A stretch of DNA of 64,000 bases from an uncultured Bacilli bacterium. GTDB taxonomy: Bacteria > Bacillota_I > Bacilli_A > RF39 > UBA660. Each line of letters opens with the position of its first letter. Position 1 is the first letter of the stretch. The translations under genes were made by a program, and so were the position numbers. The stretch lies in the NCBI GenBank assembly GCA_934101645.1, contig CAKORX010000001.1:81051-145050 (forward strand), given 5' to 3'. The notes below the pieces were generated by a model, which saw nothing but the letters and a program-made list of their open reading frames with translations, did not search any database and had not been told where the DNA came from. Below, piece by piece: positions 9,357 to 48,086 of the stretch.

Positions 9357-9533
9357 ACTACCCTTTTCTCTTTCATAAATACGATATCCATTATTTCAAA
9401 AACTATTACATTTAGAAATAACTCTATCTTATTTTTGTACCATTATAAATATATTTTATCATACTTTCATATTAAATAATATAAATTTTCATTAAATCAC
9501 ATATTTTTTTATAAATGTTTAACTTAATTTTAT

Positions 9534-9558
9534 AAAAAAAGCACATAATGTGCTAAAA
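9534..9558 (-). terminator. Intrinsic terminator downstream of paralog 2
   Basis: The minus strand reads GCACA-tta-TGTGC followed by T7, with an A7 run on the other side. Confidence 0.6.
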
Positions 9559-11169: not shown

Positions 11170-11207
11170 AGTAATATTTTAACACATTTCAAATTATATA
11201 GGAATAT

Positions 11208-11229
11208 AAAAAAAGCACAAAATGTGCTA
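11208..11229 (-). terminator. Intrinsic terminator after sortase gene 2. It overlaps the sortase TAG stop and lies only ~40 bp upstream of paralog 2.
   Basis: The minus strand reads GCACA-ttt-TGTGC followed by T7. The same stem sequence occurs in the terminator at 9534..9558. Confidence 0.55.
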
Positions 11230-11952
11230 AATAATTTCTTTTGCTATAACAAGCATATATTTATTTTTATATTTACTATATTCTTTTAAGTTACTACATG
11301 TCTGAATTATTAATAAATTATCATTTGCATTTACATTTATACCTGTATCATAAAATGATTTATTTTTAAGTTTTTGATAATGTGCTTCTTTTTCTTCTTT
11401 AGAAGTATAATCTATTTTCATATAATCCCAATCTTTAGTTTCTACGTATGCAGAAAAGATTTGATATTTTCTTACTTTTTTAGTAGTAGAAATGTAAACA
11501 TACTGATGCTCTTTATAATAATCTTCATTTACATAATTTTCGATAATCATTATTGGAAGCATGTAATTCGGAGAACTATGACCAAATATTAAAAGTTTTT
11601 CACTTTCATCAATATCAACTCTATAATCTAAAAAGATTGAACCATTTATATTATATGTTTTATCTGGTAAATGATTTAAATAATAACTATTATCTTTTCC
11701 CTGCATTATAGCGGTATTAAAATCGGTATCATTAATTTGAATGGTTCCTACTACATCATCATTATTATATTCCTTTTTTAATGAAGTAATTTTTTCTTCA
11801 TATACTTCTTCTTTATTATCAGGTAAATCTTTTGTTACTAAAATAAAATTATCATATTTACCAACGTTATAATACTCTAAAACAAAATATACTGATAAAA
11901 CTGTAAGCACTATAACGGGAATTATTACTAATAGTTTATTAATAATTTTCAT
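11227..11952 (-). CDS. srtB: Class B sortase
   Basis: N-terminal TM. Motif VVGTIQINDTDFNTAIMQGKDNSYYLNH...NGSIFLDYR, His in LIFGHS, and active-site LIIQTC. Confidence 0.8.
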   Translation of the reverse strand: MKIINKLLVIIPVIVLTVLSVYFVLEYYNVGKYDNFILVTKDLPDNKEEVYEEKITSLKKEYNNDDVVGTIQINDTDFNTAIMQGKDNSYYLNHLPDKTYNINGSIFLDYRVDIDESEKLLIFGHSSPNYMLPIMIIENYVNEDYYKEHQYVYISTTKKVRKYQIFSAYVETKDWDYMKIDYTSKEEKEAHYQKLKNKSFYDTGINVNANDNLLIIQTCSNLKEYSKYKNKYMLVIAKEII

Positions 11953-23509: not shown

Positions 23510-23884
23510 TTAATTTTCATTATTCATATTGTATTTTTCTACTCTTTTAATGCATTTTGAACTTTTTGGTTTAGTAAAACATTCCATACAAACATCATAA
23601 TCATTTTTTACAGCATCAAAACCAGTTATCAAAGGATATATTCCATTCATAATACTAGGCAAAAAGAATATTACTACTGCAATAATAAATTTATTTATAA
23701 GTGATTTAATACCCTTTTTTATTTCTTTATCATCATCAGAAATAACTGCTTTTCCTAAAGTTAAAATACCCATTACAATTAACACTATTGGAAGTAAAAT
23801 TTTAACAATTATAAGTATATATCCTAAATTTTGCCATACAGTAATTGTACTTTGGCAAAAACCATTTTCAGTCCCAAGTCCCAT
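23510..23884 (-). CDS. Small 2-TM membrane protein with a Cys-rich C-terminal tail, paralog of the next gene. Function unknown.
   Basis: 124 aa. Two hydrophobic helices are separated by the charged loop SDDDKEIKKG. The C-terminus carries the motif CMECFTKPKSSKC. Confidence 0.55.
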   Translation of the reverse strand: MGLGTENGFCQSTITVWQNLGYILIIVKILLPIVLIVMGILTLGKAVISDDDKEIKKGIKSLINKFIIAVVIFFLPSIMNGIYPLITGFDAVKNDYDVCMECFTKPKSSKCIKRVEKYNMNNEN

Positions 23885-23983
23885 ACAAATCTCCCCTTCA
23901 TTAAAAATATATCACTAACTATACCACATATTCAAAAAAAATACAAATAAAAAACCATTATCACTTAAGATAATGGTTAATTA

Positions 23984-24367
23984 TTAATTTCCTCCAGATA
24001 CAGGACATTTAGATTGTGGACTACCAATACATTCAACACAAACCATGTAATCAGGTTTAACGTCATTAAATCCATTTACTAAATTAAAACATGCAGTAAC
24101 GATATTTGGTAAAAAGAATATTACAACTGCCGCAATAAACTTAGTTATTAATCTATTAACTTGCGTTTTAATTTCCTTATCATCATCTGCAAGAACTGCC
24201 TTTCCAAGTCCAATAATTCCTAAAACGATTAAAACAACTGGAATAACAATTTTTAAAACTAAAACAATTCTTCCAACAAATTGCCAAACGTCAGCTGTTT
24301 GTGAGCAAAATCCGTCAGCACCGCCTAAAGTAGATGGATCAAAATCATCAAATAATCTCATATACAA
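23984..24367 (-). CDS. Small 2-TM membrane protein with a Cys-rich C-terminal tail. Function unknown, possibly a pilin-like accessory.
   Basis: 127 aa with the same architecture as the previous gene (loop LADDDKEIKTQ, C-terminal motif CVECIGSPQSKC). Its topology only superficially resembles VirB2/TrbC. Confidence 0.55.
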   Translation of the reverse strand: MYMRLFDDFDPSTLGGADGFCSQTADVWQFVGRIVLVLKIVIPVVLIVLGIIGLGKAVLADDDKEIKTQVNRLITKFIAAVVIFFLPNIVTACFNLVNGFNDVKPDYMVCVECIGSPQSKCPVSGGN

Positions 24368-24439
24368 CTCTCCTTTACATACCTATATTTTACCTTTTTT
24401 ATATATTTATGTCAATATTTACTACAAATAGTTTACAAG

Positions 24440-25438
24440 CTATCTAAAGATACTAAATCCAAAAGATTCTTTATCAGAAATTCTTGTAAAACCTAATTCT
24501 TTAAGTAACTTATTAATTATCTTGTTATCGTCAATTTTATCATCAACATTTGGTAAATTGAAAAATACTTTACTACCACTTTCTTTTTCAAAATCACTTA
24601 CATCGTTATCGTTTAATACACTACGATTTAAGATAATCTTTTTGCCTTTTAACTTTTCAAAAGCCTTATGATCTGTTTTAATTAATTTATTAAGCTGAAT
24701 AAGGCCAGGCTCAATTAAATAAATTATATCCGTACAATAAGAACTTGCATCAGCATTATTCATATCAATTATAATAACTTCAGCATCTTTATTACTTGCA
24801 TCATCTAAATATTTTTCTATATCAAAACTATTTACATTGCTTTTTAAATTACTATCATTAAAATAAACAAAATCGCTTTTATCTAGTTCTGCAGCTTTAA
24901 CTTTATATTCCTTTTCTAGATGTTTTTTTAATAAATAAGCAAGTGTAGTAGCACCAGCATGTTCAGTAACATTTTTAATACCTAAAACTCTTCTTCCAAT
25001 AAAACCAACACTTTTATCAACTGCTTTATCATTAAGTTTTCTTTCTTCAGCTGCCATATTCAAATTATGATAATTGGCAACATCTTTGTATGTATTTGGG
25101 TTATCTATTAAAAAAGGTATAGAATCTACATTTTTTGTAAAATTGTAAATACCCATTGATACAAGACTTGACAAATACATTGGTGAGTTTACCTTCGGAG
25201 AATCATCTAAAAGTAAAATTACTTTACTCATGTCAAGAGCTACTGACAAATCTTGAATTGTGTTAATATCCTCGTAATTTTCAAGTGCTGTAATATCTAA
25301 AATCATTCTATTGTAATAAAAATTTTTGAATTGAGATGCTAAATCATTTACCTCAAAAACCCCGTTTAAAGTTTTAATTACATCTATGCCTAAACCAGCA
25401 AGTAATGCTTCATTTTTATTTGAAATAATAACGTTCAT
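24440..25438 (-). CDS. TadZ/CpaE-like pilus-assembly protein with a MinD/ParA-type ATPase fold and a degenerate P-loop
   Basis: The N-terminus is a receiver-like domain. The central segment GIKNVTEHAGATTLAYLL aligns to the MinD P-loop region but lacks the Lys. The gene lies immediately downstream of the pilin genes, as in Tad loci. Confidence 0.5.
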   Translation of the reverse strand: MNVIISNKNEALLAGLGIDVIKTLNGVFEVNDLASQFKNFYYNRMILDITALENYEDINTIQDLSVALDMSKVILLLDDSPKVNSPMYLSSLVSMGIYNFTKNVDSIPFLIDNPNTYKDVANYHNLNMAAEERKLNDKAVDKSVGFIGRRVLGIKNVTEHAGATTLAYLLKKHLEKEYKVKAAELDKSDFVYFNDSNLKSNVNSFDIEKYLDDASNKDAEVIIIDMNNADASSYCTDIIYLIEPGLIQLNKLIKTDHKAFEKLKGKKIILNRSVLNDNDVSDFEKESGSKVFFNLPNVDDKIDDNKIINKLLKELGFTRISDKESFGFSIFR

Positions 25439-25449
25439 AAAAAACCTCC

Positions 25450-25968
25450 TTAACTATATAATAATTTTGTTTCACCAATTGCTCTAAAATTAAATATGGC
25501 ATGTAAAACTGGAATATCTAACTGATAAAAAACATATACACGATAATAATAACCTTTTAGTGTATCCTCAGATTTATTACTATCTATCTTCGCAATGCAA
25601 AAAGAACTTTTTTTACCACTTAAAGTTTTATCGCCATTTCTCTGATAACCAACCATATCTACGACAACACTGCCGTTTTCATTAAATGGTATATCTTCAC
25701 AACTTCCTTGTTGACGATAAGAATTACTTTCTAATGAATCAACAATATTTTGTAAAGTGGCTTGATCTTTATTATCCATATTACAATTTCCTAAGAAACA
25801 TTGAGCGCTTGTATCAAATCCTCCAGCAGTTTCGATTATTGAAACTATTTGGTCCTTTACAGCAAAAGCATTAGCCTGATTTAATGTAAGAGACATTACT
25901 CCTGCAAAAATAAGTACCATTACAACAACAATTAAAAATAATTGTATTCCGCCTATTCCTTCTCTCAT
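25450..25968 (-). CDS. Pseudopilin-like protein, TadE-like. It has an N-terminal hydrophobic segment after a short charged leader.
   Basis: The N-terminus reads MREGIGG|IQLFLIVVVMVLIFAG followed by an extracellular domain. Its position in the Tad-like operon supports the call. Confidence 0.4.
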   Translation of the reverse strand: MREGIGGIQLFLIVVVMVLIFAGVMSLTLNQANAFAVKDQIVSIIETAGGFDTSAQCFLGNCNMDNKDQATLQNIVDSLESNSYRQQGSCEDIPFNENGSVVVDMVGYQRNGDKTLSGKKSSFCIAKIDSNKSEDTLKGYYYRVYVFYQLDIPVLHAIFNFRAIGETKLLYS

Positions 25969-25974
25969 AACTTA

Positions 25975-26196
25975 CTACCCCTTAAACATACATTGGAAAC
26001 TTTTACCATCTAAGGTGCAATTTACCATACCATTTTCATCAGGATACACTGAACAACTTGCTTTTTCACAACTTGTTTGCGCAACAAAATTAGTTTTAAT
26101 TATTGGCCATATTGTAAAGTAAAAAAAGGCTACGAGAATAGCCACACAAACACATACAACAACAAGATTTGCTAGACTTCCCGTAGCATTTTTCAT
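25975..26196 (-). CDS. Flp-type pilin-like small protein with a Cys-rich C-terminus
   Basis: 73 aa. The N-terminus MKNATGSLANLVVVCVCVAILVAF is a short polar leader ending in G plus a hydrophobic helix. It shares the K-x-A-T-G-[ES]-L-x-N motif with the next gene. Confidence 0.55.
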   Translation of the reverse strand: MKNATGSLANLVVVCVCVAILVAFFYFTIWPIIKTNFVAQTSCEKASCSVYPDENGMVNCTLDGKSFQCMFKG

Positions 26197-26220
26197 TTTT
26201 TCTTACTCCTTTTTGATTAA

Positions 26221-26481
26221 TTATTGACCTACTGTACAATCACATTGAATAGTGTCTTCGCTAATATTCATACCAGCAGCACTATCAGCATCTGTGTAAT
26301 AATGGCATTCTTGAGTACCATTATCACATGCAGTACATTGTACTGCAGCATGACAATAAGTTCTTGCTCTAATAGCGTTTCTTAAAGCGGGATATAAGAA
26401 TACTGTGAATAATGTTAGTATAGCAGCAATTGCAACTACAGTTATAACAGTGTTACTTAATTCACCTGTAGCTTCCTTCAT
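26221..26481 (-). CDS. Flp-type pilin-like small protein with a Cys-rich C-terminus
   Basis: 86 aa. The N-terminus MKEATGELSNTVITVVAIAAILTLF is followed by 8 Cys in the C-terminal 50 aa. Confidence 0.55.
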   Translation of the reverse strand: MKEATGELSNTVITVVAIAAILTLFTVFLYPALRNAIRARTYCHAAVQCTACDNGTQECHYYTDADSAAGMNISEDTIQCDCTVGQ

Positions 26482-26551: not shown

Positions 26552-27343
26552 TTATAGATTAATCATTTCAAGTACAGCAAGTATCAAGATAATCATTACA
26601 CCTACACCTGTTGTAACAAGCATTCTCATGGTCATACTTTCCATTTTATCAAGACGATTTTTATATCTTGTTTCTCTAGCCTTTTGCTGTAAAGATGAAA
26701 TTGATTTTGAAAATGTTAATAATTGTTCTTGTTTTCTTTCCTGTCTTCCTAAACTTAAACGATATAGTAGTCTCATCATTCTCATACTATCTCTAACAGG
26801 ATATTCTTTTGCAAATTCCATATAGGGAGTAATTGTATCATCACCAGAGTTAATTGCATTTATTAGTTCCTCAAGACCTGGTTTAAATATCTCTGGTGCA
26901 TCATTTATAGATTTACCTATTGCAACTGGAACTGTATAGTGTTGAATTAATATTTCAATACTTTTTAAATAGTGTGGAAGCAAAGAATCTATTTGAGCAA
27001 TATGCTTTTTATAGTAGTTTTTTATTTCCATATAAGTTATTTTAAATACACCATAACCTACAGCCACTGCAATAACCATTTTTATCGCAGAAAAGCCTGT
27101 CATCATTACGTAAAATACTGCTAAAATTGTACCAATTAAACCATTTCTAACACGTTTATTAAAAAGAATATCGGGATTTACGGCATTACCATATTTTGCT
27201 TTAACATAAAAATCCCAATCACTTTCTTTTAATTTTCTAAAAATAACTTCATTATCACTAATTAATTTACTAAAACTAATTTGTCCCGTAGTGAACATTA
27301 TTAAATAAATAATGGCCCCTAAAATAAATATTTCATAATACAT
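26552..27343 (-). CDS. tadC: Tad pilus assembly inner-membrane protein of the TadC/GspF-domain family
   Basis: 263 aa. An N-terminal TM, a cytoplasmic domain and C-terminal TMs. Adjacent to the TadB-like gene and the ATPase. Confidence 0.55.
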   Translation of the reverse strand: MYYEIFILGAIIYLIMFTTGQISFSKLISDNEVIFRKLKESDWDFYVKAKYGNAVNPDILFNKRVRNGLIGTILAVFYVMMTGFSAIKMVIAVAVGYGVFKITYMEIKNYYKKHIAQIDSLLPHYLKSIEILIQHYTVPVAIGKSINDAPEIFKPGLEELINAINSGDDTITPYMEFAKEYPVRDSMRMMRLLYRLSLGRQERKQEQLLTFSKSISSLQQKARETRYKNRLDKMESMTMRMLVTTGVGVMIILILAVLEMINL

Positions 27344-27344
27344 A

Positions 27345-28247
27345 TTATTCTACCCCCACATCTTCATTATAATATTTTTCACCTTTTAATAGGAACAAAG
27401 CATTTATAATAATAATTGCATGAAGTATAATTTGCACATACCATATATCTAAAAGGTCCATATATCTTTCAGTACCATACATGTATTGTACAGCTAAAAT
27501 CAAGAAAAATAATGCTAAACCAAATTTAATAAATCTTCCATGGAAATTTTTACGATCCATTTGGTCCCTATAAACGCCTTCAACAAGAGCATCTATATCC
27601 ATTGACATGTTCTCTAAACTTTGTCCAGCATCCCTTGCACCTTCTTTAGTTATTTGATAGAAAAGTTGGTGCATATTTTTAACCATATAATATGGATATT
27701 TTTTATTAAAATAATCAATTGATTCATCTATCGTACCATTTTGATAAGACATATCAATCATCTTTTTAAGGTCACCTAATACAGGTTCTTCAATAATACC
27801 AGAATCCCTAACACCCTCTAATGATTTAACAAAACTTTGAGTTGTATTAAACTCCATTATTACATTGGTTGTGTAAGTTTCAATTTGTTCAAATATAAAT
27901 TCTGAATATATTCTTTGGCATCTTAAATATGCTAGATAAGGAATTACAGATATTGCCACCACAGCATAAACAATTGATATCAAAACATTATAAAAATATA
28001 AATACGCTACGATACCAGCAAAACCAGCAAATAAAACTATTTGTGAAATATATTGTCTCGTAGTAAACTCTTGACCAAGTTCTTTAGCTTTTGCTCTTAC
28101 TGTCTTAAATGAATACGGAGCATATTTTTCATAAGCATTTGATGCAGTGGTAACAAAAAACTTATAAACATTTTCTCCAGGATTTCTACGATACAAAATG
28201 ATAAAAATTCCCAGTAACAAAAGTATAATAAGTTCTAACACATACAT
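27345..28247 (-). CDS. tadB: Tad pilus assembly inner-membrane protein of the TadB/GspF-domain family
   Basis: 300 aa with polytopic topology typical of the T2SS F domain. The ORF start is only about 10 nt downstream of the ATPase ORF end (stop not checked), and the ORF end is 2 nt from the TadC-like ORF start. Confidence 0.55.
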   Translation of the reverse strand: MYVLELIILLLLGIFIILYRRNPGENVYKFFVTTASNAYEKYAPYSFKTVRAKAKELGQEFTTRQYISQIVLFAGFAGIVAYLYFYNVLISIVYAVVAISVIPYLAYLRCQRIYSEFIFEQIETYTTNVIMEFNTTQSFVKSLEGVRDSGIIEEPVLGDLKKMIDMSYQNGTIDESIDYFNKKYPYYMVKNMHQLFYQITKEGARDAGQSLENMSMDIDALVEGVYRDQMDRKNFHGRFIKFGLALFFLILAVQYMYGTERYMDLLDIWYVQIILHAIIIINALFLLKGEKYYNEDVGVE

Positions 28248-28259
28248 ATAAACTCCTTT

Positions 28260-29402
28260 CTATAATGAATCAATAGCTTCCATTTTTGGCATTTCTAATT
28301 CTACATCTTCATTATTTGTTTCTTTTTTTACTTCATCGGTGTTATTAACTTCATCAAATAAAGTTTCATCAAGTTTCTTTCCTTGTGCTCCAAAATAATC
28401 CTTTAAATATTTCGTAGGTTTATTAAATGAAATAGTTCCATCCAAGCTCTTAGAAAATATTTTATTTACACCAGCTTCATTATTTTCATCTACATAAAAT
28501 TCCGCAACCTCAACTATTTCACGTTGAAATCTTTGAAGTTCTGCACTCATGTATCCTTTAACATGGATACCAATTTGTACATATCTATGAATTGATTTTA
28601 AAAATTGTTCAATATCTTGATTGCTTTCAAGAAGTGAATACATACGCATTGGAATATGACTTGCACTATCTGAGTGAATTGTAGAAATAATATTATGTCC
28701 TGATGAAATAGAGTTACGTACAGCAGTAACAGCTTCGGCAGAACGAACTTCGGAAAGTAGTATCCATTTAGGATTCTGTCTCATACATGTTACAAGTACA
28801 TCAGAATACGATGCAATATTATTGGTTTTCATTGCAACAATATCTCTATGTGGAAAAATTCTATCTAAATGTAATTCCAAAGTATCTTCGATTGTAATAA
28901 TTTTTTCGTTTTCCTCAGTATTTGAAGCTAAATATTTAGCAAGTTCAGTTTTACCTGAACCAGTTTCACCGGAAATAATAATATTGCAGTGTGCTTTAAC
29001 ACATGATATTAAAAAATTATGTACATTTTCAGTAACATATTTTTCATTAAGTAATTTTTCTTTATTAAGTCTTATCTTTGCAGGTGTTTTTCTTATAACA
29101 CATGCAATTCCATTTGTAGCAATACTTTCATGAACAAAGTTAAGACGAAGTTCTGTACTTTCGGCATCCAGAAATGGATGAGCCATGTTAAATGTAGTTC
29201 CCATAACATTTGAACATTGAAAAGCAAGTTTTTCCATTAAAGCATTATTTATTTCAGGTCTATTGACCATATATATACCTTTATCCAAAGTTTTTAGCCA
29301 AACATTTCCACCATTTGAGTACGAAATATCGGTAATATTATCATCATTTAAAAACTCAGTTATTGGTCCAAAATCTAATTGTGAAAATATTGATTCTTTC
29401 AC
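28260..29402 (-). CDS. tadA: Secretion ATPase of the CpaF/TadA/VirB11 family
   Basis: Walker A in IIISGETGSGKTE. His-box-like SSGHNIISTIHSDSA. GTG start with a GGAG RBS. Confidence 0.8.
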   Translation of the reverse strand: MKESIFSQLDFGPITEFLNDDNITDISYSNGGNVWLKTLDKGIYMVNRPEINNALMEKLAFQCSNVMGTTFNMAHPFLDAESTELRLNFVHESIATNGIACVIRKTPAKIRLNKEKLLNEKYVTENVHNFLISCVKAHCNIIISGETGSGKTELAKYLASNTEENEKIITIEDTLELHLDRIFPHRDIVAMKTNNIASYSDVLVTCMRQNPKWILLSEVRSAEAVTAVRNSISSGHNIISTIHSDSASHIPMRMYSLLESNQDIEQFLKSIHRYVQIGIHVKGYMSAELQRFQREIVEVAEFYVDENNEAGVNKIFSKSLDGTISFNKPTKYLKDYFGAQGKKLDETLFDEVNNTDEVKKETNNEDVELEMPKMEAIDSL

Positions 29403-29424: not shown

Positions 29425-30195
29425 TTATTCTTCTGGTAATGGTGAAGTCTTAGCTAATATAAAGTTCTTTAGATATTCTACAGTAACAGTACTAGCATTT
29501 TTTTCTGTATATGCTTTATTACGAGGTACAGGTACTAAAGTAATACCTGAAATATATCCAGCATACATTAATAATTTATACATGTCATTTGGTACGGCAA
29601 ATAAAAGTTCAGCAGGTGTTCTTGTCTCAGTAGAGCCAAATACATCTTTACCACTTGCATCACGTACACCTAAAACTGTGATACTTTCAATAAAGTTACC
29701 AAACATAATTTTTCCACTATCATCAGTAGCTTTTAAATAAAGGTCAATTTTATCACCAGGATAAATTGAATTACCAAATGTTGTATGATTATTAACAGAC
29801 ATACTATAAATTGTATGCTTATCTGGAATATTATCAAATACTGAGTTTGGTAGTTCAGCTTTTGTAACTACTTGAGTTTTATAGAAAAGTCCTCCTTTAG
29901 GAATAGATGTACCAGTAGTAACATAATAACCAATTAAAGCTCCTTGACTTTGAATAATATCTGCAGTTTTTAAGAGTTTATTATTAACCTCTACAAACCC
30001 AATCTTATCTTCAGTAATTTCTTCTGTAGCTTTAATCTCTTCCTTTGCATAAGGTACTCTTATCGGTGTTGTTGCCTCTTTTACTCTTGCTGAGTAAAAA
30101 GCCCAAAGTACAACAATACCTGCAAGTACAAGTAAAATAGTAACTGTATTTTTATTTGCAACAGTCTTTCTAATAAATTCTTTTATATTTCCCAT
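29425..30195 (-). CDS. cpaB: Flp pilus assembly protein CpaB/RcpC-like (N-terminal TM plus a SAF-like domain)
   Basis: The likely start is ATG at 30195 (MGNIKEF...) with a GGAGGA RBS. The ORF is open further upstream to 30270. TM is TVTILLVLAGIVVLWAF, and the SAF-like region is ADIIQSQGALIGYYVTTGTSIP. Confidence 0.5.
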   Translation of the reverse strand: MGNIKEFIRKTVANKNTVTILLVLAGIVVLWAFYSARVKEATTPIRVPYAKEEIKATEEITEDKIGFVEVNNKLLKTADIIQSQGALIGYYVTTGTSIPKGGLFYKTQVVTKAELPNSVFDNIPDKHTIYSMSVNNHTTFGNSIYPGDKIDLYLKATDDSGKIMFGNFIESITVLGVRDASGKDVFGSTETRTPAELLFAVPNDMYKLLMYAGYISGITLVPVPRNKAYTEKNASTVTVEYLKNFILAKTSPLPEE

Positions 30196-30314
30196 TTTTA
30201 TCCTCCATATTGATAATCTTCTACTATCAATTAAAATTATAGCAATTTTTAAAAATATTTTCAATAACATATCATAAAAAAAGACACATTTTTATTCTCG
30301 TGTCTTTTTGGTTT

Positions 30315-31463
30315 TTATTTGAATGCTATATATTCAGTAAATGCACTATTTACATTATCATACTTTTCACAAGATTGTCCTACCATCGGATTATAAACTT
30401 TAAAACAATTGTTAGTTGCATCATAACCATAAATAGTGTAATAATGTCCACTTTTTGTACTTTTCAAAGTTGAATCACTTCGTGCAGAAAAACCTGGTGC
30501 TAAAGATGCAACGACTACCTGACCACTTGCTAATGCATCATATATTGCCTTTGCATGACCGGATGGACCTTCGCCAAATTTTCCTCCAGACCCAGCAACA
30601 CTGATTCCGATTGAATTATAAAAACTATTACTTTGATTATAGTCATTAACTCTTCCACAGAATAAACTGCTTGAGGCATCAGTAGTATTACTTGTCGGAT
30701 CTCCATTTAATCCTACTTTATTCATTCCAACATAAGCAGCTGCTGCAAGTTTGTTATAATCACTGCCATTATAACCTGTTGCACTCTTCAAATTATTTAC
30801 TTTACCTAGAAAATATGCAGCTTCAGTAATAGCAATTGGTCCACATGCACAGCCAAAGTTTACATTGTAATCACCCCATGTAGTAGACACATTTTCACGT
30901 CTACTAGACTGATATATATTCGCAGGATTAATATTAAATCCAACGTCATGTAATTCTTCATCGCTTGGTGTTTCTTCATCAGGATTTGTAGGTGTATCTG
31001 GATTAGTCGGTGTTGTTTGATCTGGCTCTTTAACATTTTCTCCAGTTCCTTGACTATCTTTAGTCTTTGTTTCAAGAATTGCATCAATTCTATTAACAAT
31101 ATCAAATGTTGTTGAATCACCGCTTACATTAAATGCTGCAGATTTACTTGAAACTTGAACACCAACTTTTGGTGGAGCCTCGTAAATCTCAGTAAATTCG
31201 ATAGTATAAACAGTTGAAAGCGAAGCTTCTTCAGCAAATCTTCTTAAAAAAACTTCATAAAACTTTTCTTTGTTAATTTTTATCTCACCGTATTGACGGT
31301 AATAAGCATAATCTACTGCATCAACCATAGCTGACTCAGTAATTTCTTTTACTAAATAATAATCTTGTGTATTAGTTGAAGTATAGCTTTGGACAAGAAG
31401 GAGTACTACTATGATAAATACTCCTAAAACCATTAGCCAATAGCCCCAATAGGATTCCTTCAT
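30315..31463 (-). CDS. Membrane-anchored protein with a C-terminal papain-like cysteine peptidase domain (C39-like / BtrH-like)
   Basis: N-terminal TM. A Pro/Thr-rich linker (TPTNPDTPTNPDEETP). Catalytic-type Cys in NFGCACGPIAITEAAYF and His in SGHYYTIYGYD. Confidence 0.6.
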   Translation of the reverse strand: MKESYWGYWLMVLGVFIIVVLLLVQSYTSTNTQDYYLVKEITESAMVDAVDYAYYRQYGEIKINKEKFYEVFLRRFAEEASLSTVYTIEFTEIYEAPPKVGVQVSSKSAAFNVSGDSTTFDIVNRIDAILETKTKDSQGTGENVKEPDQTTPTNPDTPTNPDEETPSDEELHDVGFNINPANIYQSSRRENVSTTWGDYNVNFGCACGPIAITEAAYFLGKVNNLKSATGYNGSDYNKLAAAAYVGMNKVGLNGDPTSNTTDASSSLFCGRVNDYNQSNSFYNSIGISVAGSGGKFGEGPSGHAKAIYDALASGQVVVASLAPGFSARSDSTLKSTKSGHYYTIYGYDATNNCFKVYNPMVGQSCEKYDNVNSAFTEYIAFK

Positions 31464-31475
31464 TTCATACCCTCC

Positions 31476-34400
31476 TTACTTCCATGATGGTCCAACATCT
31501 GGTATACCATCACCATTTGTATCTAGTGAACTGAATTTATATATTGTCCAGTAATCATTTGTTACAACATCGCTCATTGTTCCAGCAGGACCTGTATAAA
31601 TTGTACTAAAGTTCTCTTTATTTTTTGTTCTGCCATCTTTATTTGCCATTTCTACTTTACCACCAAAATCATCGTTTAAAAGTTTATCAACAAATGTACT
31701 GTAGCAGAAAATGTTACTCATTCGACAAGTTTTGTCAGTATCATTAAATGAATAGCCATTCTTTTTACAACGATTTTCATCATAACCAGTTAGAACATAA
31801 TCTTCACATTTTAAAGTATCATTATTATATGTGCCTTGTTCTTTATTATATTCTCTAATTTTTGTTATCATATCTGTATCCATTGTAACTTTTAATGTAT
31901 ATTTTTCTACAGTTGGTACTCCTGAAGAACCACCACTTCCTTGACCAGTTTCTCCAGTCGCACGTTTAGTTATTTCTGTTCTTGTATCGCCAGCTTTTCT
32001 TGCAACTAATTTATTACCATATACATTAGCATTAGTTTCCCAGTTGAATCCAACAACACGGTCAGTTGGGAATAGGTTTCCTGGACTTACAGGTCTAAAA
32101 TCGTAAGATGGCTTTGATGGTGTATTAGGATCTTCTCTAGTTACAACACAGTCAATACACTCTACTACACAATTTGGACAACAATTATAATTTCTTTCAC
32201 ATTGTTCACCAGGAGTGCAGCCAACTGCAGCAAGTGCTTCTTGTCTAGAATTCATCTTCTGACAAGTTGAATCAAAATAGTTATTATCACAAACATAATA
32301 TCCTTTTGATTCCATTACACAATACCTTGCTTCACTAGATGCAGGGCAAAGTCTTTCTTTACATGTATCCCAATCCTCATCTTTGTTACATTCAGTTTTA
32401 TAATGTGATTTTCCAGAACTATCAACACATTCACTTTGTGATACTTCATAAGTACATGCATATTGATTTCCATCAAGTGTTATTCCAGAATTATCATTTG
32501 TTGTTGTAGTTTCTGATTTTCTAATTCCTTTATCAATATAATAGTTTGACATACTATCGCTTGATGTTCCAAATATACGTCCAAGTGTTGGACTTGTTGA
32601 ATAGAATGTACCAATATTATCAAGAGTTAAAATATAATAATATACTCCTTTTGCGGTATTAATTCCAACAGGTAAACCATCAACTCTATCATAGTTTTCC
32701 ATTTCAGTTTGGTTAGCTATTTTTATATTACCATCATCATGGCCTGAGAAATAAACTCTTGCTGTATTATATGTTCCTATAGAAGAAGCAATTTTATGAA
32801 CATATTTTATCTTTGTTACTGGGAACTCAGAATCATTTGATGTATTAGAACATGTGATTTCTCCCTCATCACTTTCAGGTACATCACATACAAAGTAATG
32901 TTCCTTATCATAAGATATTTCAGTACTTCCATCACATGTATCATAAGCATTATTTACTTCACCATCACAACGCCATGTAGTATCATGAATATTTCCATCT
33001 ATATCTTCTACTTGAGTAGCTTGTTCACAGTTAGCACTACCAGATGCACAAACCTCTGCTTGAACTTTTTCATCAGGACTTATCATTATATCGCAAGTAC
33101 CTTTTTCACAAGACAATCCTTGAACTTCATTTATCCATTTTGAAACAGAATTGTTGCCAGGTTCAGGTTCTTGATAACTATATTTTACATATGGATCATA
33201 AACATAAACCATATCCCAATTTAATTTTTTAGTAGTATCTCCAGACACACTTGTATAATCTTTGTCATCACCACATGAATTATATTTATCAACTATTTCT
33301 TTTAATTCTTCAATAGCCTTTGTAATTTTTGCTTTTGCAGCATTTCTCTTTTCTTCGAAACCACTCTTTTGACTTTCCCAATCACTTTTTGCAGATATGC
33401 ACATTGGGTCTTTGCTTGAATCTTCTTTACCAAAGTAAGATTTATTTCCCATATTAGTATCACTGAATACATCACTTGGATTACCTTTACTAAATGTTAT
33501 TTTCTTTCCATCATCTTCGACAGTATATTTAATGAATTTATTGCTATGGTTAATATAATATTTATACTCTACATCAGCACCTTCATCATCACTACATTTA
33601 ATTTCTTGGCTAGTATCTTTTATCCAAGTTTCAGTCTTATCTACAAATGTTAAATTTTCATAATAATATAGCCATTCATTATATGCATCAACTATTTCTT
33701 TTTGTTTTTCAACAACATCTTTGCTATATTGGTCTTTATCAATCTTAGTTGTATAGCAATCTTGTTGGCCCTTAATTTTAACACTTATTTGGAAATATCT
33801 TCCAGCTTCGGCTGTCTTTTTATAAGGTACACCAAATTTATAATCTTCTTTACATCTTACCTCACAATAAGGGTTATCTTGAACAGCTTGAGCATTAGTT
33901 GCATCAACATATTTATAAGAATTATCTGCAATATCTTTGCTGTCCTTTTTTAATAAACACTTTTTAATATTATAAGTTTTTGTATCAGGATTGTATGCTT
34001 CTCTAAACTCATAATCTAAATATTCTTCTATATCATTTTCATCGTATTTTACTAAATTATCACTATCACCAGGTTCACAAATTGTAGGTATTGTTACTGT
34101 TGGTTGGCATTTAGTATCACTACATAATTGTGTATTTAAAGTAAAATCGCCATTTACTGGTTCTGTGCTTGAAACTAAGAATCTTTGAATTTTGCTATCT
34201 TTACTAGTTTCTCCTTTTGGAGAAATTCTCGCTCCAGAAAAAGCTGATGTATATTCATATTCAATTTTTATACTAACAGAACAATCTTCCTCTGAATCCT
34301 CTTCATCGGCATCATCGTATTTATCTTCTTTTGTAAGTGTTAAAGAAAATCCTAAATAAAGTGTGCCTTTTCTATCACTATCACTTAATTTTTGTGACAA

Positions 34401-35261
34401 ATCCTCATTACTACTTACTGGGTCCCAACCTTCCACACTGTCATTAAAAGTTTTAGAAACCCCAAGGAATTTAACAGTAGCTCCATTTTTGGCTATTATT
34501 TCTGGTTCCTTAGTTAATTTAAAATATTCATCTGTACTTGTACCAGTTATATTGTTAATATCTAACTTGATTGAAACTATTTTTGTATAAGTAATTGTAC
34601 CATTCTCGGTAACTTTATTAATTTGACCTTCTTCGCCTTTTTCTACTTTAGTAGCCTTATTATCTTTAGAGTATTCTGCAGCATAATTTAAAGCTTTAGT
34701 TAAAATTTCTTTTACAGGAGAAGCTGCACTTGCATTACCAGCATACGCAGCAGTTGTAGTGACTTTCGCGCCGCCGTAAGCATTATAGGCTTTACTAAAC
34801 TCTTCGTCCTTCAAAAATTCTTTAACAAGAGCTCCTTCTTGGCTTACAAAGGCAGGATCATTAGAATTTTCAAATCCAGGTTGAATAACATCAGTAAGAA
34901 TTCTTAGTGCATAATGTTTAACATTATATTGGTTTGAATTATTCATTATGTACAAAGCCGCATAATCATATTTTGCAACAGTCGAACTTGTTGATGAAGG
35001 TAAAAGCCTTCCAACAACAAAATTTGAACCGTTAGGTGAATTTCCTCTGTCTATACAAAATGCCTCAAAGCTTTTTCCTGTTGAACTCTGAGTTGCCTTT
35101 GATATAGAATAACCCATATTACTAGGAAAGCCAAGGCCAGAATCATGTGAATTATGATCGTTACTAATTGTAAATGATTCACCCATTTTAAAGGCATAAA
35201 CATTTGGAACAAATATTAAAGTGAAAATAAATATAAATAATAATTTTGATATTTTTTTCAT
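31476..35261 (-). CDS. Very large secreted Cys-rich protein (1261 aa) of unknown function, a candidate pilus-associated adhesin or substrate
   Basis: Signal peptide MKKISKLLFIFIFTLIFVPNVYA. No C-terminal TM or sorting motif. Contains about 70 Cys. Only 1 nt separates it from the upstream gene, so it is operonic. Confidence 0.7.
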   Translation of the reverse strand: MKKISKLLFIFIFTLIFVPNVYAFKMGESFTISNDHNSHDSGLGFPSNMGYSISKATQSSTGKSFEAFCIDRGNSPNGSNFVVGRLLPSSTSSTVAKYDYAALYIMNNSNQYNVKHYALRILTDVIQPGFENSNDPAFVSQEGALVKEFLKDEEFSKAYNAYGGAKVTTTAAYAGNASAASPVKEILTKALNYAAEYSKDNKATKVEKGEEGQINKVTENGTITYTKIVSIKLDINNITGTSTDEYFKLTKEPEIIAKNGATVKFLGVSKTFNDSVEGWDPVSSNEDLSQKLSDSDRKGTLYLGFSLTLTKEDKYDDADEEDSEEDCSVSIKIEYEYTSAFSGARISPKGETSKDSKIQRFLVSSTEPVNGDFTLNTQLCSDTKCQPTVTIPTICEPGDSDNLVKYDENDIEEYLDYEFREAYNPDTKTYNIKKCLLKKDSKDIADNSYKYVDATNAQAVQDNPYCEVRCKEDYKFGVPYKKTAEAGRYFQISVKIKGQQDCYTTKIDKDQYSKDVVEKQKEIVDAYNEWLYYYENLTFVDKTETWIKDTSQEIKCSDDEGADVEYKYYINHSNKFIKYTVEDDGKKITFSKGNPSDVFSDTNMGNKSYFGKEDSSKDPMCISAKSDWESQKSGFEEKRNAAKAKITKAIEELKEIVDKYNSCGDDKDYTSVSGDTTKKLNWDMVYVYDPYVKYSYQEPEPGNNSVSKWINEVQGLSCEKGTCDIMISPDEKVQAEVCASGSANCEQATQVEDIDGNIHDTTWRCDGEVNNAYDTCDGSTEISYDKEHYFVCDVPESDEGEITCSNTSNDSEFPVTKIKYVHKIASSIGTYNTARVYFSGHDDGNIKIANQTEMENYDRVDGLPVGINTAKGVYYYILTLDNIGTFYSTSPTLGRIFGTSSDSMSNYYIDKGIRKSETTTTNDNSGITLDGNQYACTYEVSQSECVDSSGKSHYKTECNKDEDWDTCKERLCPASSEARYCVMESKGYYVCDNNYFDSTCQKMNSRQEALAAVGCTPGEQCERNYNCCPNCVVECIDCVVTREDPNTPSKPSYDFRPVSPGNLFPTDRVVGFNWETNANVYGNKLVARKAGDTRTEITKRATGETGQGSGGSSGVPTVEKYTLKVTMDTDMITKIREYNKEQGTYNNDTLKCEDYVLTGYDENRCKKNGYSFNDTDKTCRMSNIFCYSTFVDKLLNDDFGGKVEMANKDGRTKNKENFSTIYTGPAGTMSDVVTNDYWTIYKFSSLDTNGDGIPDVGPSWK

Positions 35262-35262
35262 A

Positions 35263-35988
35263 TTATATTATGTCCTTTCTTTTTTTCTTGCTAATTATTA
35301 TATAACCAGTTGCTCCAGCAATGATTACACAAGTTCCAATTATAAATATAGTTTTATTTTTCTTAACAAATTCCCATAATTTTTGAAAAAAAGTCTTATT
35401 TTTTTCTTCTTCTTGTCTTTCTTTATCCTCTTTATAATCCTCAATTTTATTTACAAAATCTTCAAATCCAGAATCAGTATATGATACATATTTATTGCAC
35501 ATATAAAACTCAGGATTCTCTTTGCAATAACCATAAGAAGAATATAAATTATATCTTGGTGTTGTTAAATAAAATGTTCTATTAAGTGTACCCTTACAAT
35601 CTGTTTTATCAGAATTGTATACATTAAAAGTAAATGTATGTATTGTCATTATATCTTCAAGATCAAAAGATATTATTCCATTTACAGCATTTTTACTTGT
35701 GAAAGTTTTATTAAATCCATTATCACCTTTTACAACTACATAAAAGTTTTCGCTTACATTTAATAATGATATTTTGAAGTAACTATACGATAAATCGCAA
35801 TCATTTTGTCCATCTGCACAAGTATATTTACTACGATCAAGTTCTGCAATTTGTTCTTCATATATTGCTTTAATCGTTGCAGCCTCACTATTAAGTTGTG
35901 CCTGCTGTTCATACGAGCACGCCGCATCTACATTGAAGCTAAAAAGTAGCATCAATAACATAAGAAAAAAATATTTTGTTTTTTTCAT
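35263..35988 (-). CDS. Secreted protein with a C-terminal TM anchor. It is the first gene of the Tad-like operon.
   Basis: Signal peptide ending NVDAA, a Cys-containing ectodomain, and a C-terminal TM with a KKKRK tail. Confidence 0.6.
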   Translation of the reverse strand: MKKTKYFFLMLLMLLFSFNVDAACSYEQQAQLNSEAATIKAIYEEQIAELDRSKYTCADGQNDCDLSYSYFKISLLNVSENFYVVVKGDNGFNKTFTSKNAVNGIISFDLEDIMTIHTFTFNVYNSDKTDCKGTLNRTFYLTTPRYNLYSSYGYCKENPEFYMCNKYVSYTDSGFEDFVNKIEDYKEDKERQEEEKNKTFFQKLWEFVKKNKTIFIIGTCVIIAGATGYIIISKKKRKDII

Positions 35989-36096: not shown

Positions 36097-36753
36097 ATGA
36101 AAATAAAGAAATTTTTTAAAAATTTATTCAAAGATATTGGTATAATCATAGGATTTATTCTTATTATAGTTTTACTATCTAATACATTTAGAAAATATGT
36201 TAGTAAAAATTCTATGTTATGGCAAATAATTATTTTTTCTATAGCAAGTTTATACTTATTAATTATTTATAGAAAAGAATTTAAAAATTACTTTTTAGAT
36301 TTTAAAAAAAATTATAAAAAGCATTTATCAAAAGGATTTAAAATTTACATAATATGTTTATTTTTTATGTATGTAAGTAACATATTAATTTATTATCTAA
36401 CTAAATCTTTAGCCACTAACGAAACAATGAATCGTGCATCTGTTTCTCAAAATTTAATACTTTCAGTTATTGATATGTGCATTCTTGCTCCCTTTTATGA
36501 AGAAACTTTATCTAGATTAAACTTCAAAAATTTATTTTCAAATAAATGGACATTTTCCATAATAACGGGACTTGCTTTTGGTTCATTACATCTTTTAGTG
36601 GCTGAGTCTTTAGTAGAATGTTTATATTTAATACCTTACTCAATTATGGGTTTTTCCCTAGGATATATGTATTATGATACAAATAATATATTTACTTCAA
36701 TGAGTTTCCATTTTTTGAATAATTTCGTAAGTATATTATTACTTGTTTTATAG
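36097..36753 (+). CDS. CPBP-family intramembrane metalloprotease (CAAX protease / Abi-like)
   Basis: Polytopic. Motifs EETLSR (EExxxR) and FGSLHLL (FxxxH). Confidence 0.7.
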   Translation: MKIKKFFKNLFKDIGIIIGFILIIVLLSNTFRKYVSKNSMLWQIIIFSIASLYLLIIYRKEFKNYFLDFKKNYKKHLSKGFKIYIICLFFMYVSNILIYYLTKSLATNETMNRASVSQNLILSVIDMCILAPFYEETLSRLNFKNLFSNKWTFSIITGLAFGSLHLLVAESLVECLYLIPYSIMGFSLGYMYYDTNNIFTSMSFHFLNNFVSILLLVL

Positions 36754-46130: not shown

Positions 46131-48086
46131 CTAACTAATTGTTGCATATCCTAAAATATGTTTCTGAACTTTTAGTAAATCTTTTATATCTACTACGCCA
46201 TCGCTATTAACATCGGCGGCTTTAGCATAACTTCCCACTAAATTTAAGTATCCTAAAATATGTTTTTGAATTTTTAGTAAGTCTTGAATATTTATATTTC
46301 CATCGCCACTAGGGTCGCCTTTAATAGCTATTATATAAGTTTTAGAATCATTGCCATTTACTAAAGTAAGTTCATCTCCAGTACAAAGTTTACCACTTGC
46401 TCTATTTGCAAAATTTACGGTAACTGTTGATGAAGACTTTTTAAATAGCTCTGTTAAAGATTCCACTGTATAACCAGCACTTAACATAAAAATATTATCA
46501 CTAAGTGGAATTCCACTACTAGCAACTATATCGCTAACAGATGCACTTTCTCCTTCAGTTTTAATAATATTTATAACATATTCTTGAACTTTTTGATTTT
46601 CAGCGGTTACTTTTAATGTTACAGTTGTCTTATCACTATTTAAATTTACTTCTCCAAGACCAGATATTGTTGCTTTACTATTTATTGTTTCAGCTGTAAT
46701 ATTTACTTTGTTAATTCCTTTACCAGTATAATAATTATATGTATAGTTATCATGGCTAAAGCCAATTACATCATTATTATTTATTTTTATATTTTTCAAA
46801 TGATTATTAGGATTTCCACCATTTGGAAGTGCTGCAATTGTTGATGGCATATTATCGTAAACTGGAATTACAAATTTATAAGCTACGCTTCCTATTAAAT
46901 CCATCTCTTTATACCCACTATAAGTAATTGATGCTTCTGTAGCAGCACCCCTTATATTAGTCATATATTGATGTGCATAAGGAGCATAAGCTGAATATGA
47001 ACTAACGTTAAATTTTTGAAAATATGAAGTATCTTGTCCTTTTGAAATATAATTATTTGTAATATAATTTGCTCCACCTTTTATAGCGTTATCAAGATTT
47101 GTCCATGGTCTTAAATAACTTGTACCACTTACGGCCCATACAAGTCCATCATAAACTCCTGTAAAAGCACCTATATTATAAGGATTATATACAGGATAAT
47201 ACTCTTTATTATCATAAATAATTTTAGTTCCTTTTAAAGAGTTTCCTGTATAATTTCCTCCAGTTTCTTGTTTAATTCTACTTGCTAAATATATTGCACT
47301 TGCATTAAAACTTTTTCCAGCCTCATAAATAACGCTTGCTTTTTCTTTAATATCTTTACCCTCTAAAATAGCTTCAACACTACTTATTGTTTGATAGCTT
47401 TCATCAAAGGATAATTTTTCAAACATAAATATAGTTCTTTCATCTAAAAAGTTTCGTGGGTCCATATAGTATGCCACGACTTCTTTGTTTGCAGCATACC
47501 AATCTTTTCCTTCTTTTACTTTAAATGTATCAGTTAAATAATCATAGCTTCCACTTTCAGTTGAAAAGTATCCTTCATAATTAGATTGAATAAAACTTTT
47601 ACCAACAACGCTTTCTTTTTCGGTAGCTATATCAAATGGTAATCCATTTTTATCAGCTGTAAAAGTCCAATTTGGATATTTTTCTTTAAGTGAGCAAAGC
47701 ATTGGCCAGTAAGAATTTGGAAAACCGTTTTGCTCCATTTCTTTTTCACAATCTGTAGTTGCCGAAACTGGTGTATCTTTTACCGTATAAATAGTTACAT
47801 AACTTGCACACACATAGCCAACATCTTTATTTGAATAATATATTTTATACCAACCATCGGAGCAACCTTTTTCATTCGGATACAAATTTTCATCCGCTAA
47901 ATCAAAATTTGCGCTTACACCGAGTTTTTTTATCGAAGAATAATTTGTTCCAGGGCCAGTTCTTAAATTAACATCATTATAATCCACTCTAAGTTTTTTT
48001 GTATCCGCTAAAACGTTACTTGTAAAGGTAAATAAACAAATAATAAATAATAAAATTTTATTTATTTTATTTATTTTATACTTCAT
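46131..48086 (-). CDS. Secreted dockerin-containing protein carrying SH3b, a GH73-like N-acetylglucosaminidase domain, a cadherin-like domain and a C-terminal type-I dockerin
   Basis: Signal peptide. SH3b region LRTGPGTNYSSIKKLG...GWYKIYY. Glucosaminidase-like segment AIYLASRIKQETGGN. Two dockerin Ca-binding repeats, DPSGDGNINIQDLLKIQKHILG and DVNSDGVVDIKDLLKVQKHILG. Confidence 0.7.
   Translation of the reverse strand: MKYKINKINKILLFIICLFTFTSNVLADTKKLRVDYNDVNLRTGPGTNYSSIKKLGVSANFDLADENLYPNEKGCSDGWYKIYYSNKDVGYVCASYVTIYTVKDTPVSATTDCEKEMEQNGFPNSYWPMLCSLKEKYPNWTFTADKNGLPFDIATEKESVVGKSFIQSNYEGYFSTESGSYDYLTDTFKVKEGKDWYAANKEVVAYYMDPRNFLDERTIFMFEKLSFDESYQTISSVEAILEGKDIKEKASVIYEAGKSFNASAIYLASRIKQETGGNYTGNSLKGTKIIYDNKEYYPVYNPYNIGAFTGVYDGLVWAVSGTSYLRPWTNLDNAIKGGANYITNNYISKGQDTSYFQKFNVSSYSAYAPYAHQYMTNIRGAATEASITYSGYKEMDLIGSVAYKFVIPVYDNMPSTIAALPNGGNPNNHLKNIKINNNDVIGFSHDNYTYNYYTGKGINKVNITAETINSKATISGLGEVNLNSDKTTVTLKVTAENQKVQEYVINIIKTEGESASVSDIVASSGIPLSDNIFMLSAGYTVESLTELFKKSSSTVTVNFANRASGKLCTGDELTLVNGNDSKTYIIAIKGDPSGDGNINIQDLLKIQKHILGYLNLVGSYAKAADVNSDGVVDIKDLLKVQKHILGYATIS

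Follow-up and report, generated by a model that had tools for sequence, protein, structure and literature searches.

A large cysteine-rich secreted protein with a thioester-domain-like head, encoded in a Tad-like pilus operon of an uncultured Bacilli bacterium

The locus discussed here lies on contig CAKORX010000001.1 of an uncultured Bacilli bacterium, within a stretch of 64,000 nucleotides (nt) that was analysed as a whole and is called the window below; its G+C content is 27%. Thirteen genes form a cluster on the minus strand, running from 35988 to 23510, and the second of them encodes a secreted protein of 1261 amino acids (aa), hereafter the giant protein. The original prediction, made from the DNA letters and a list of open reading frames (ORFs), had pictured this product as a disulfide-stabilised adhesin, toxin or pilus tip component encoded second in a pilus operon. 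The position within the operon was correct, while the operon itself is a diverged Tad-like (type IVc-like) system and not a sortase pilus locus. The N-terminal part of the giant protein resembles the thioester domains (TEDs) of bacterial adhesins, and its remaining two-thirds are rich in Cys residues. The features of the locus are collected in Table 1.

The ORF at 31476-35261 is intact, running on the minus strand from an ATG through 1261 codons to a TAA stop without a frameshift. The N-terminus (MKKISKLLFIFIFTLIFVPNVYA, followed by FK) has a basic n-region, a hydrophobic core and V-x-A at positions -3/-1, and Ala23 is invariant among the relatives in two alignments, one of 22 sequences (45-79% identity) and a broader one of 37 sequences (about 25% identity). 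The signal peptide is the sole hydrophobic segment of the protein, with no C-terminal transmembrane (TM) segment, and a search of the protein for LPXTG-like motifs ([LIVN]Px[TSA][GANS]) found none; the sortase signal of TIE proteins (LPXTG, TM and basic tail) is therefore lacking, and the protein ends in GPSWK. The early description, which gave no strand, was accurate on the ORF, the signal peptide and the missing anchor. It had overstated the number of Cys residues almost two-fold, the count being 39 and not about 70. The unusual density that it stressed is nonetheless real, as Cys makes up 3.1% of the giant protein against 0.3-1.1% in the other signal-peptide proteins of the window (3-10 times less), and the Cys-rich peptide that it quoted, CTPGEQCERNYNCCPNCVVECIDCVV, is found at residue 1015. 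An architecture of EGF-like, lectin or repeat units, which it had proposed to look for, was rejected, since self-BLAST of the giant protein revealed no internal repeats and Pfam gave no match.

The structure of the giant protein was predicted as two overlapping halves, with input alignments of 33-34 sequences. The model of the N-terminal half (residues 24-720) has a mean predicted local distance difference test (pLDDT) score of 72, with values of 80-95 over residues 24-313 and of about 85 over residues 503-663. When this model was searched with Foldseek, class II TEDs were the sole matches at E<=1e-3 (6fwy, 5.5e-6; 6fwv, 2.8e-4), and the alignments, of about 380 columns, covered both the lobe and the sandwich. 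The predicted head has the fold that characterises TEDs, namely, a beta-barrel with a three-helix subdomain, along with the inserted beta-sandwich of class II. The family profiles point in the same direction. One family member, P0082, which matches the family profile with an E value of 6e-83, scores 23.5 bits on the Pfam TED model (PF08341), the gathering score of which is 22. Furthermore, TED was matched by the N-terminal domains of 4 out of 22 relatives at E<=1 and was the sole family to recur.

The Cys and Gln residues that form the thioester bond are the only ones conserved universally in TEDs (PMC4450167, PMC6194298). The bond Cys occurs on a strand, in a [YFL]C-hydrophobic-hydrophilic motif (PMC4450167), and the bond Gln occurs in a weak hydrophobic-Q-hydrophilic-hydrophobic-hydrophobic motif, on a strand at the domain end; in class II TEDs the beta-sandwich is inserted before the Gln-bearing hairpin, and the two residues are 171-204 positions apart (PMC6194298). 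In the giant protein, the predicted bond Cys is Cys69, which is present in 182 of 183 relatives, with Tyr or Phe at -1 in 175 and Asp or Asn at +2 in 164. The resulting family context, [YF]C[LIMV][DN], conforms to the published motif. Given the published location of the bond Gln, on the strand after the class II sandwich and not on a helix, Gln359 was picked as the second residue. It follows a predicted sandwich of nine strands and is present in 176 of the 183 relatives, where it is followed by Arg in 119 and then by Phe or Tyr in 164 (pattern Q[RK][FY]); its surroundings agree with the Gln motif of TEDs, the choice of this particular Gln being based on conservation and topology and not on a measured distance. 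A third element, the TQxx-hydrophobic-W helix, has a diverged counterpart in the giant protein, for which the family consensus is ATSIALR, with Ala118 and Arg120 in 179 of the 183 relatives. On this evidence, the head is very probably homologous to TEDs, and the fold together with the two signature residues, all within the N-terminal 355 residues or so, supports the adhesin option of the original prediction. The Cys69-Gln359 thioester is a predicted bond, and its actual formation is considered probable.

The distribution of the Cys residues provides a further line of evidence. In the alignment of close relatives, 35 of the 39 Cys are at least 90% conserved, and 13 of the 31 invariant columns of the broad alignment are Cys. 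The Cys count of the mature part is odd in 143 of 179 full-length relatives (binomial p 2.7e-16) and in 107 of 140 representatives at 50% identity (p 2.6e-10). These p-values overstate the independence of the sequences, which are related by descent; the Cys totals span 25 to 85, which implies many independent changes in the count. An odd number argues for one Cys outside disulfides, and when Cys69 is set aside, an even number, 38, remains. In addition, the variable Cys are gained or lost as adjacent pairs (718/723, 738/745, 1165/1179, 1015/1021 and 991/1000; r 0.92-1.0), which is the behaviour of disulfide partners and is unlike that of metal clusters. Parity and pairing would fit one thioester Cys plus about 19 disulfides, and it is from these two properties that we infer the disulfides, so that the stabilisation suggested at the outset has gained indirect support. 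Other Cys-rich extracytoplasmic products of the operon are the pilins, the product of the first gene and the proteins that resemble type IV secretion system (T4SS) pilins.

Beyond the head, the most conserved block of the family comprises residues 463-504, in which C466, C470, E472, C502 and Y503 are invariant in the broad alignment and further columns are invariant in the close family. Residues 466-661 are predicted to form a long hairpin and two long helices, with confidence from about residue 500 onward. For residues 379-1261, no fold match was obtained, and neither a Pfam domain nor Cna_B was detected in the 37 relatives; the CnaB isopeptide/ester stalk of TIE proteins was not found, a result that for the C-terminal fold depends on a poor model. 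The very end of the protein is again conserved, because G1257 and P1258 are invariant and W1260 and K1261 are present in at least 90% of the 37 sequences, and GPSWK also terminates the distant members P0039, P0040 and P0082. In the close family, it is preceded directly by LDTNGDGIPD (residues 1246-1261 with the terminus; 31479-31526, minus strand), a DxNxDGxxD loop that resembles the calcium-binding loops of dockerins and EF-hands. This loop lacks conservation across the wider family. A protein with a true dockerin domain is encoded elsewhere in the window (46131-48086). Mean identity within the close family is 36% in the head and 62% in the C-terminal part, and long variants carry an insertion of about 300 aa within the helical lobe of the head. 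This gradient is the pattern to be expected if a variable binding head were carried by a constant body in contact with conserved partners.

The closest genomes are a metagenome-assembled genome (MAG) of an uncultured Bacilli from Hadza stool, at 79% identity, and "Mycoplasma sp. CAG:472", at 47%; the closest MAGs presumably belong to the small-genome gut Bacilli of the RF39 type. A word-indexed search for homologues returned about 40 clusters, all of them without a Pfam domain or a name; two further searches of this kind enlarged the set hardly at all. An exhaustive profile search with residues 360-1261 extended the family to 587 clusters at 50% identity (E<=1e-3), 310 of which were found at E<=1e-30, so that the family comprises at least 587 clusters. 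Nearly all representatives are 1000-1400 aa long, and the names recovered were blank or "hypothetical protein". A tblastn search of plasmids did not find a homologue of the giant protein, and there is thus no sign of a plasmid-borne or conjugative origin.

The gene immediately upstream, first in the cluster, encodes a single-pass membrane protein, here called the partner. It ends 1 nt before the ATG of the giant gene, as had been noted, and AGGA is found about 11 nt upstream of that ATG. The translational coupling proposed from this spacing is plausible; distant relatives show a 4-nt overlap between the two genes. The partner (about 245 aa across loci) is always located directly upstream of the giant gene, and its ectodomain has 4 invariant Cys in an alignment of nine orthologues. 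The order partner, giant protein, DUF5411, (CpaB-like protein), ATPase is kept in 8 of 8 related loci, down to 22-25% identity, and DUF5411 follows the giant gene in all six loci with Pfam annotation. One of the related loci, L007, has two tandem copies of the partner-giant pair in front of just one machine operon, which indicates that the two genes form one cassette. Of two Hadza contigs, one carries the upstream giant paralogue as an intact gene, and in the other it is split into 207 and 1117 aa (L007 5062-9144, L008 5063-9144). Within this gene, the sole difference between L007 and L008 is a homopolymer of A7 versus A6 (4.2 kb compared), which may stem either from an assembly error or from phase variation of an adhesin by strand slippage.

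The rest of the operon supplies the parts of a Tad-like machine with varying clarity. It includes the TadA/CpaF-type ATPase that is expected of Tad systems, and the two small proteins in the pilin position have the short leader ending in Gly and the hydrophobic helix of Flp pilins, without the canonical G/xxxxEY motif; equivalent pairs of small genes are present in the same position in L003 and L007. The two polytopic proteins gave no match to T2SSF or to any other Pfam family and are only weakly similar to each other (E 0.017), and the soluble protein in the tadZ position has no match. No A24 prepilin peptidase (TadV) was detected among the 50 window ORFs, from the operon and its flanks, that were scanned with Pfam; the scan left out about 15 mostly large ORFs, and the gene may sit elsewhere in the genome. 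A scan for promoters and terminators was uninformative in DNA of this composition, with 98 sites observed versus 84 expected.

Table 1. Features of the giant-protein gene and of the adjoining genes (positions within the window)
Feature	Position	Strand	Description and basis
Giant-protein gene	31476..35261	-	1261 aa, 39 Cys, TAA stop; ORF list and translation
Sec signal peptide	35193..35261	-	Residues 1-23 (MKKISKLLFIFIFTLIFVPNVYA); n-, h- and c-regions in the sequence, Ala23 invariant
TED-like head	34128..35192	-	Residues 24-378: lobe (24-200), inserted beta-sandwich (~205-350), Gln359 hairpin; class II TED-like topology
FCID	35049..35060	-	Residues 68-71; Cys69, predicted thioester Cys, at end of predicted strand; motif per PMC4450167
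VKHYALR	34902..34922	-	Residues 114-120; diverged counterpart of the TQxx-hydrophobic-W helix; TED match of P0082 spans Cys motif to helix
IQRFL	34176..34190	-	Residues 358-362; Gln359, predicted thioester Gln, at strand start after the sandwich; motif and topology per PMC6194298
Most conserved family block	33750..33875	-	Residues 463-504 (NPYCEVRCKEDY...GRYF...DCYT); adjacent pLDDT 74-94
Cys knot	32148..32456	-	Residues 936-1038, 15 Cys in 103 residues, including CTPGEQCERNYNCCPNCVVECIDCVV; Cys positions and conservation; 991/1000 and 1015/1021 co-vary
C-terminal end GPSWK-COOH	31479..31493	-	37-sequence alignment, ~25% identity
Partner gene	35263..35988	-	241 aa; signal peptide, ~185-aa ectodomain, C-terminal TM, basic tail; sequence and hydropathy
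DUF5411 + C39-like peptidase	30315..31463	-	382-aa membrane protein; PF17424 3.7e-54, PF13529 1.2e-07
CpaB/RcpC-like protein	29425..30270	-	PF16976 5.4e-06, TIGR03177 9.8e-07, both under curated cut-offs
TadA/VirB11-type secretion ATPase	28260..29402	-	PF00437 8.8e-29, above cut-off; TIGR03819 3.9e-28, under equivalog cut-off
Two polytopic membrane proteins, TadB/TadC position	26552..28247	-	300 and 263 aa; position and hydropathy only
Two small Cys-rich Flp-like pilins	25975..26481	-	86 and 73 aa; leaders MKEATG and MKNATG, then ~25-residue hydrophobic stretch
Pseudopilin-like protein, soluble protein (tadZ position), two small 2-TM proteins	23510..25968	-	172 aa and 332 aa for the first two; sequences; NF045849 weak match

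Several details of these genes deserve mention in their own right. The C39-like domain that is fused to DUF5411 has an apparent catalytic Cys (GCACGP) and His (GHYY). In the six Pfam-annotated relatives, DUF5411 is a separate protein of 132-170 aa followed by a protein of about 250 aa; in L007 the latter is encoded between DUF5411 and the SAF/CpaB-like gene, and it may be the peptidase. The CpaB/RcpC-like protein probably starts at the internal Met26, the orthologue in L001 being 256 aa long. The gene of the 73-aa pilin (25975-26196, minus strand) fills an apparent 252-nt gap in the operon, next to that of the 86-aa pilin (26221-26481), and the short exposed tail of each pilin contains about 6 Cys. 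The last two genes (23510-24367, minus strand) encode two-TM proteins of 124 and 127 aa with conserved Cys, which weakly match T4SS_pilin (PF18895; 5.3e-05 and 8e-04, below the cut-off) as well as the Mbov_0395 conjugal-transfer family, and which are odd companions of a Tad-like system. A hairpin resembling a terminator lies between them (23953-23978).

The flanking housekeeping genes look like uvrA, uvrB, cysS, gltX, trxB and lgt from their N-terminal sequences and lengths, with Pfam support for the uvrA neighbour alone, in L003. Immediately beside the operon, an intramembrane protease of the CPBP/Rce1-like kind is encoded divergently (36097-36753, plus strand). It adjoins the operon also in L001, L002, L003 and L004, and not in L006 or L007, and it weakly matches the NCBIfam models of C-terminal-sorting CPBP proteases (MrtS, MrtJ). 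This enzyme could process the pilins or the C-terminal anchor of the partner, or its adjacency could be retained synteny. Beside the CPBP protease and the operon of the distant locus L004 there is a gene (1207-1659, minus strand) for a membrane-anchored protein of 150 aa with a thioredoxin fold and a CSHC motif. Its presence would agree with a requirement for disulfide formation outside the cytoplasm; the window has no equivalent of this gene.

A separate locus of the sortase type is found at 3.5-12 kb of the window (3555-11952), and a VanY carboxypeptidase is encoded in the window as well. The sortase genes (3555-4370, plus strand, and 11227-11952, minus strand) flank a gene for a 1063-aa vWA-domain protein (4402-7593, minus strand), the tail of which (LPPHT, a hydrophobic stretch, KKEN) resembles a sorting signal, and two genes for 536-aa paralogues (7746-9356 and 9559-11169) with N-terminal hydrophobic segments and no Pfam match. 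With two sortases and VanY, the bacterium appears to have a cell wall and sortases, of which the giant protein makes no use; it is presumably a Gram-positive organism with a single membrane.

In our judgement, the giant protein is likely to be a covalent adhesin of the TED type that is independent of sortase and works with the Tad-like pilus. It would be exported by the Sec pathway and cleaved at Ala23, after which the N-terminal residues, about 355, would fold in the class II manner: a lobe of strands and helices, then the inserted beta-sandwich, then a hairpin leading back to the lobe. Cys69 and Gln359 would then form the internal thioester autocatalytically, and a nucleophile of the target, e.g., a lysine amine of a molecule on a host or microbial surface, might attack it to create a covalent tie, by analogy with SfbI and Cpa. 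Such a covalent link has been demonstrated for SfbI with fibrinogen (PMC4450167). The remaining 880 or so residues would serve as a stalk or body, in which about 19 disulfides would provide the stiffness that isopeptide or ester bonds confer on classical TIE proteins. The anchorless protein would most likely be held at the surface by the co-translated, single-pass partner, through the highly conserved C-terminal half that ends in GPSWK, with the pilus as a further or alternative tether. Together with the Tad-like pilus, which would supply reach and perhaps retraction, it would act in one of two ways: as an adhesin at the tip of the pilus or otherwise associated with it, or as an adhesin of the cell surface that takes over after contact by the pilus. 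Attachment through the partner, association with the pilus, the location of the protein and its target are inferences; a place at the pilus tip, one of the options of the original prediction, is doubtful.

A number of observations weigh against this proposal, some of which suit a degenerate TED better, that is, a head in which the fold has been kept and the thioester lost, with Cys69 free or engaged in a disulfide (e.g., with Cys327) and the protein acting as a non-covalent, disulfide-stabilised adhesin. The giant protein has no match in Pfam, NCBIfam or, by phmmer, the PDB sequences, and like most family members it lies below Pfam TED detection. A profile of the N-terminal lobe retrieved no TED chains from the PDB sequences, its matches there (designed helical repeats and cullin-3) being spurious, and phmmer with the N-terminus of P0082 did not find a TED chain in the PDB either. 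The Cys-Gln spacing of 290 residues is unusually long in comparison with the 171-204 of the solved class II TEDs, the pLDDT near Gln359 is only about 69-82, and the proximity of the two residues, and with it the geometry of the bond, is presumed. The TQxx-hydrophobic-W motif has been lost, Gln having been replaced by Ser or His and Trp by Arg, and Cys327 is present in 85% of relatives. On the other hand, this motif is incompletely conserved in TEDs and dispensable for bond formation (PMC4450167, PMC6194298), and Cys327 is missing from 8 of 22 close relatives, all of which retain Cys69. The occurrence of Gln359 in nearly all relatives at about 25% identity, at the place of the class II bond Gln, is hard to explain without a bond, and the odd parity argues for one Cys outside disulfides. 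A degenerate head is accordingly regarded as unlikely. Other difficulties concern the rest of the covalent-adhesin proposal: about 20% of the relatives have an even Cys count, and no thiol oxidoreductase with an export signal, sought as the original prediction had advised, is encoded in the window, where CxxC occurs only in a cytoplasmic TrxB, in the zinc fingers of the probable UvrA and as a pair inside a signal peptide. Lastly, the model of the C-terminal half has a pLDDT of 57 and no fold match, and with its C-terminal 700 residues modelled poorly and without matches, two-thirds of the giant protein are uninterpreted.

The giant protein and its partner might instead be an extracytoplasmic, wall-spanning part of the DUF5411-type apparatus, such as a conduit, a stator or an assembly platform, with no role in adhesion. 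Their strictly conserved position at the head of the operon, the translational coupling, and the highly conserved C-terminal half with its invariant terminus would suit a structural component, and the TadB/C-like and other components, too diverged for Pfam, mark the system as unusual. However, no part of such a machine is known to use a TED head with conserved bond residues, and this head evolves fast and tolerates insertions. Tandem duplication of the pair, possibly with a phase-variable copy, is typical of adhesins, and no such protein is listed in the Tad cluster described for the gut TANB77 Clostridia; nor do we know of a giant-like protein in actinobacterial Tad loci. A machine component is therefore judged improbable. 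Even less probable is a secreted effector, a toxin or a metal- or redox-active protein released as cargo by the Tad-like system, with Cys clusters (CCPNC..C..C) that bind metal or undergo redox reactions. The protein is indeed anchorless, residues 1027-1038 have CxxC-type spacings, and the ATPase resembles the VirB11-type secretion ATPases too. Nevertheless, the metal-cluster reading of the CxxC motifs was rejected, as the spacing of the Cys in the knot varies among relatives and Cys change by twos, not by threes or fours. The toxin option of the original prediction found no support, because conservation peaks at the C-terminus and variability at the N-terminus, the reverse of polymorphic toxins, and a toxin or enzyme domain was detected in none of 37 relatives. 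Moreover, the Sec signal peptide already provides for export from a bacterium that presumably has a single membrane.

If the thioester is real, the covalent adhesin proposed here would offer a concrete mechanism of attachment for uncultured gut Bacilli, extend the biology of TEDs beyond sortase systems and yield a new reactive protein scaffold. The family is large and has been missed entirely by current annotation, and it also gives a functional handle on the "secretion-related" operons of the DUF5411 type, hitherto computational predictions only. A bolder and rather unlikely extension is that uncultured gut Bacilli with small genomes possess a hitherto uncharacterised Tad-like nanomachine of the DUF5411 type, of which the whole family acts as the dedicated adhesive tip or cargo, with a stalk braced by disulfides in place of isopeptide bonds. 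The role of sortase would then fall to the partner, and possibly to the CPBP protease next to the operon or the C39-like peptidase, which would dock or process the GPSWK end. Switching between targets, such as host mucosa and other microbes, would be made possible by the tandem cassettes, which may be phase-variable. If true, this would be the first case of covalent capture through a thioester that is coupled to a machine for type IV filaments rather than to sortase pili.

To our knowledge, thioester adhesins are the only bacterial adhesins that bind their targets covalently, and the TED adhesins that we know of are anchored by sortase and have a stalk with isopeptide or ester bonds, apart from one that is encoded in a conjugation operon. 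The best structural matches of the giant protein are the class II TEDs of TIE86 from E. faecium, BaTIE from B. anthracis and SaTIE from S. aureus (6fwy, 6fwv and 6fx6). As in these proteins, the head is N-terminal, after a Sec signal peptide, and consists of a lobe and an inserted sandwich with the Cys and Gln motifs on strands. Unlike them, the giant family has the helix motif T/x-S/H-x-A-L-R in place of TQxx-hydrophobic-W, and the giant protein lacks both LPXTG and the CnaB isopeptide/ester stalk of TIE proteins, in place of which it has a disulfide-rich body of about 880 aa with no recognised fold. The nearest functional precedent, by analogy, is TIEpLS20 (p34), encoded by the B. subtilis plasmid pLS20 and needed for cell-cell contact, which is likewise an adhesin with a class II TED and no sortase signal, encoded inside the operon of a membrane nanomachine. 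TIEpLS20, however, is plasmid-borne, belongs to a conjugation (T4SS) operon and has Cna-type domains after the TED, whereas the giant gene is chromosomal, with uvrA, uvrB and tRNA synthetase genes at its flanks, lies in a Tad-like operon and encodes a Cys-rich body.

Two kinds of pilus tip protein offer further comparisons. Cpa (Spy0125), the tip adhesin of the sortase pilus of S. pyogenes, has class I TEDs inside isopeptide domains and is joined to its pilus by sortase, in contrast to the giant protein, which occurs with pilus genes of the type IV/Tad kind and has no sortase signal. PilY1/PilC are large non-pilin tip proteins of the type IVa pili of diderm bacteria, about 1000-1200 aa long, with a Sec signal peptide; they are encoded among pilus genes, lack a pilin-type N-terminus and are thought to reach the tip by means of other proteins. 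PilY1, with its vWA-like N-terminus and beta-propeller C-terminus, has no known relation to the giant protein in sequence or fold.

As regards the operon, a "secretion-related" operon with DUF5411 has been predicted computationally in Roseburia, Ruminococcus and Eubacterium (Miller et al. 2022, PMC9523054). It shares with the present one the CpaF/TadA ATPase, a PilC/GspF-like membrane protein, DUF5411, a large adhesin-like protein and the provenance from gut Firmicutes. The large protein of that operon, compared with the giant protein by description only, was reported as internalin-B-like and not TED-like (PMC9523054). Tad-type clusters are likewise on record for another uncultured clade of the gut, the TANB77 Clostridia, and a TED protein is mentioned neither for that cluster nor for the operon of PMC9523054. 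The family described here is not categorically new, since it resembles the TIE/TED adhesins while departing from them in the LPXTG anchor and the isopeptide/ester stalk. What is new is that a TED-like head is combined with a disulfide-rich body and encoded together with a membrane partner and a Tad-like machine, a combination that is widespread and yet unannotated.

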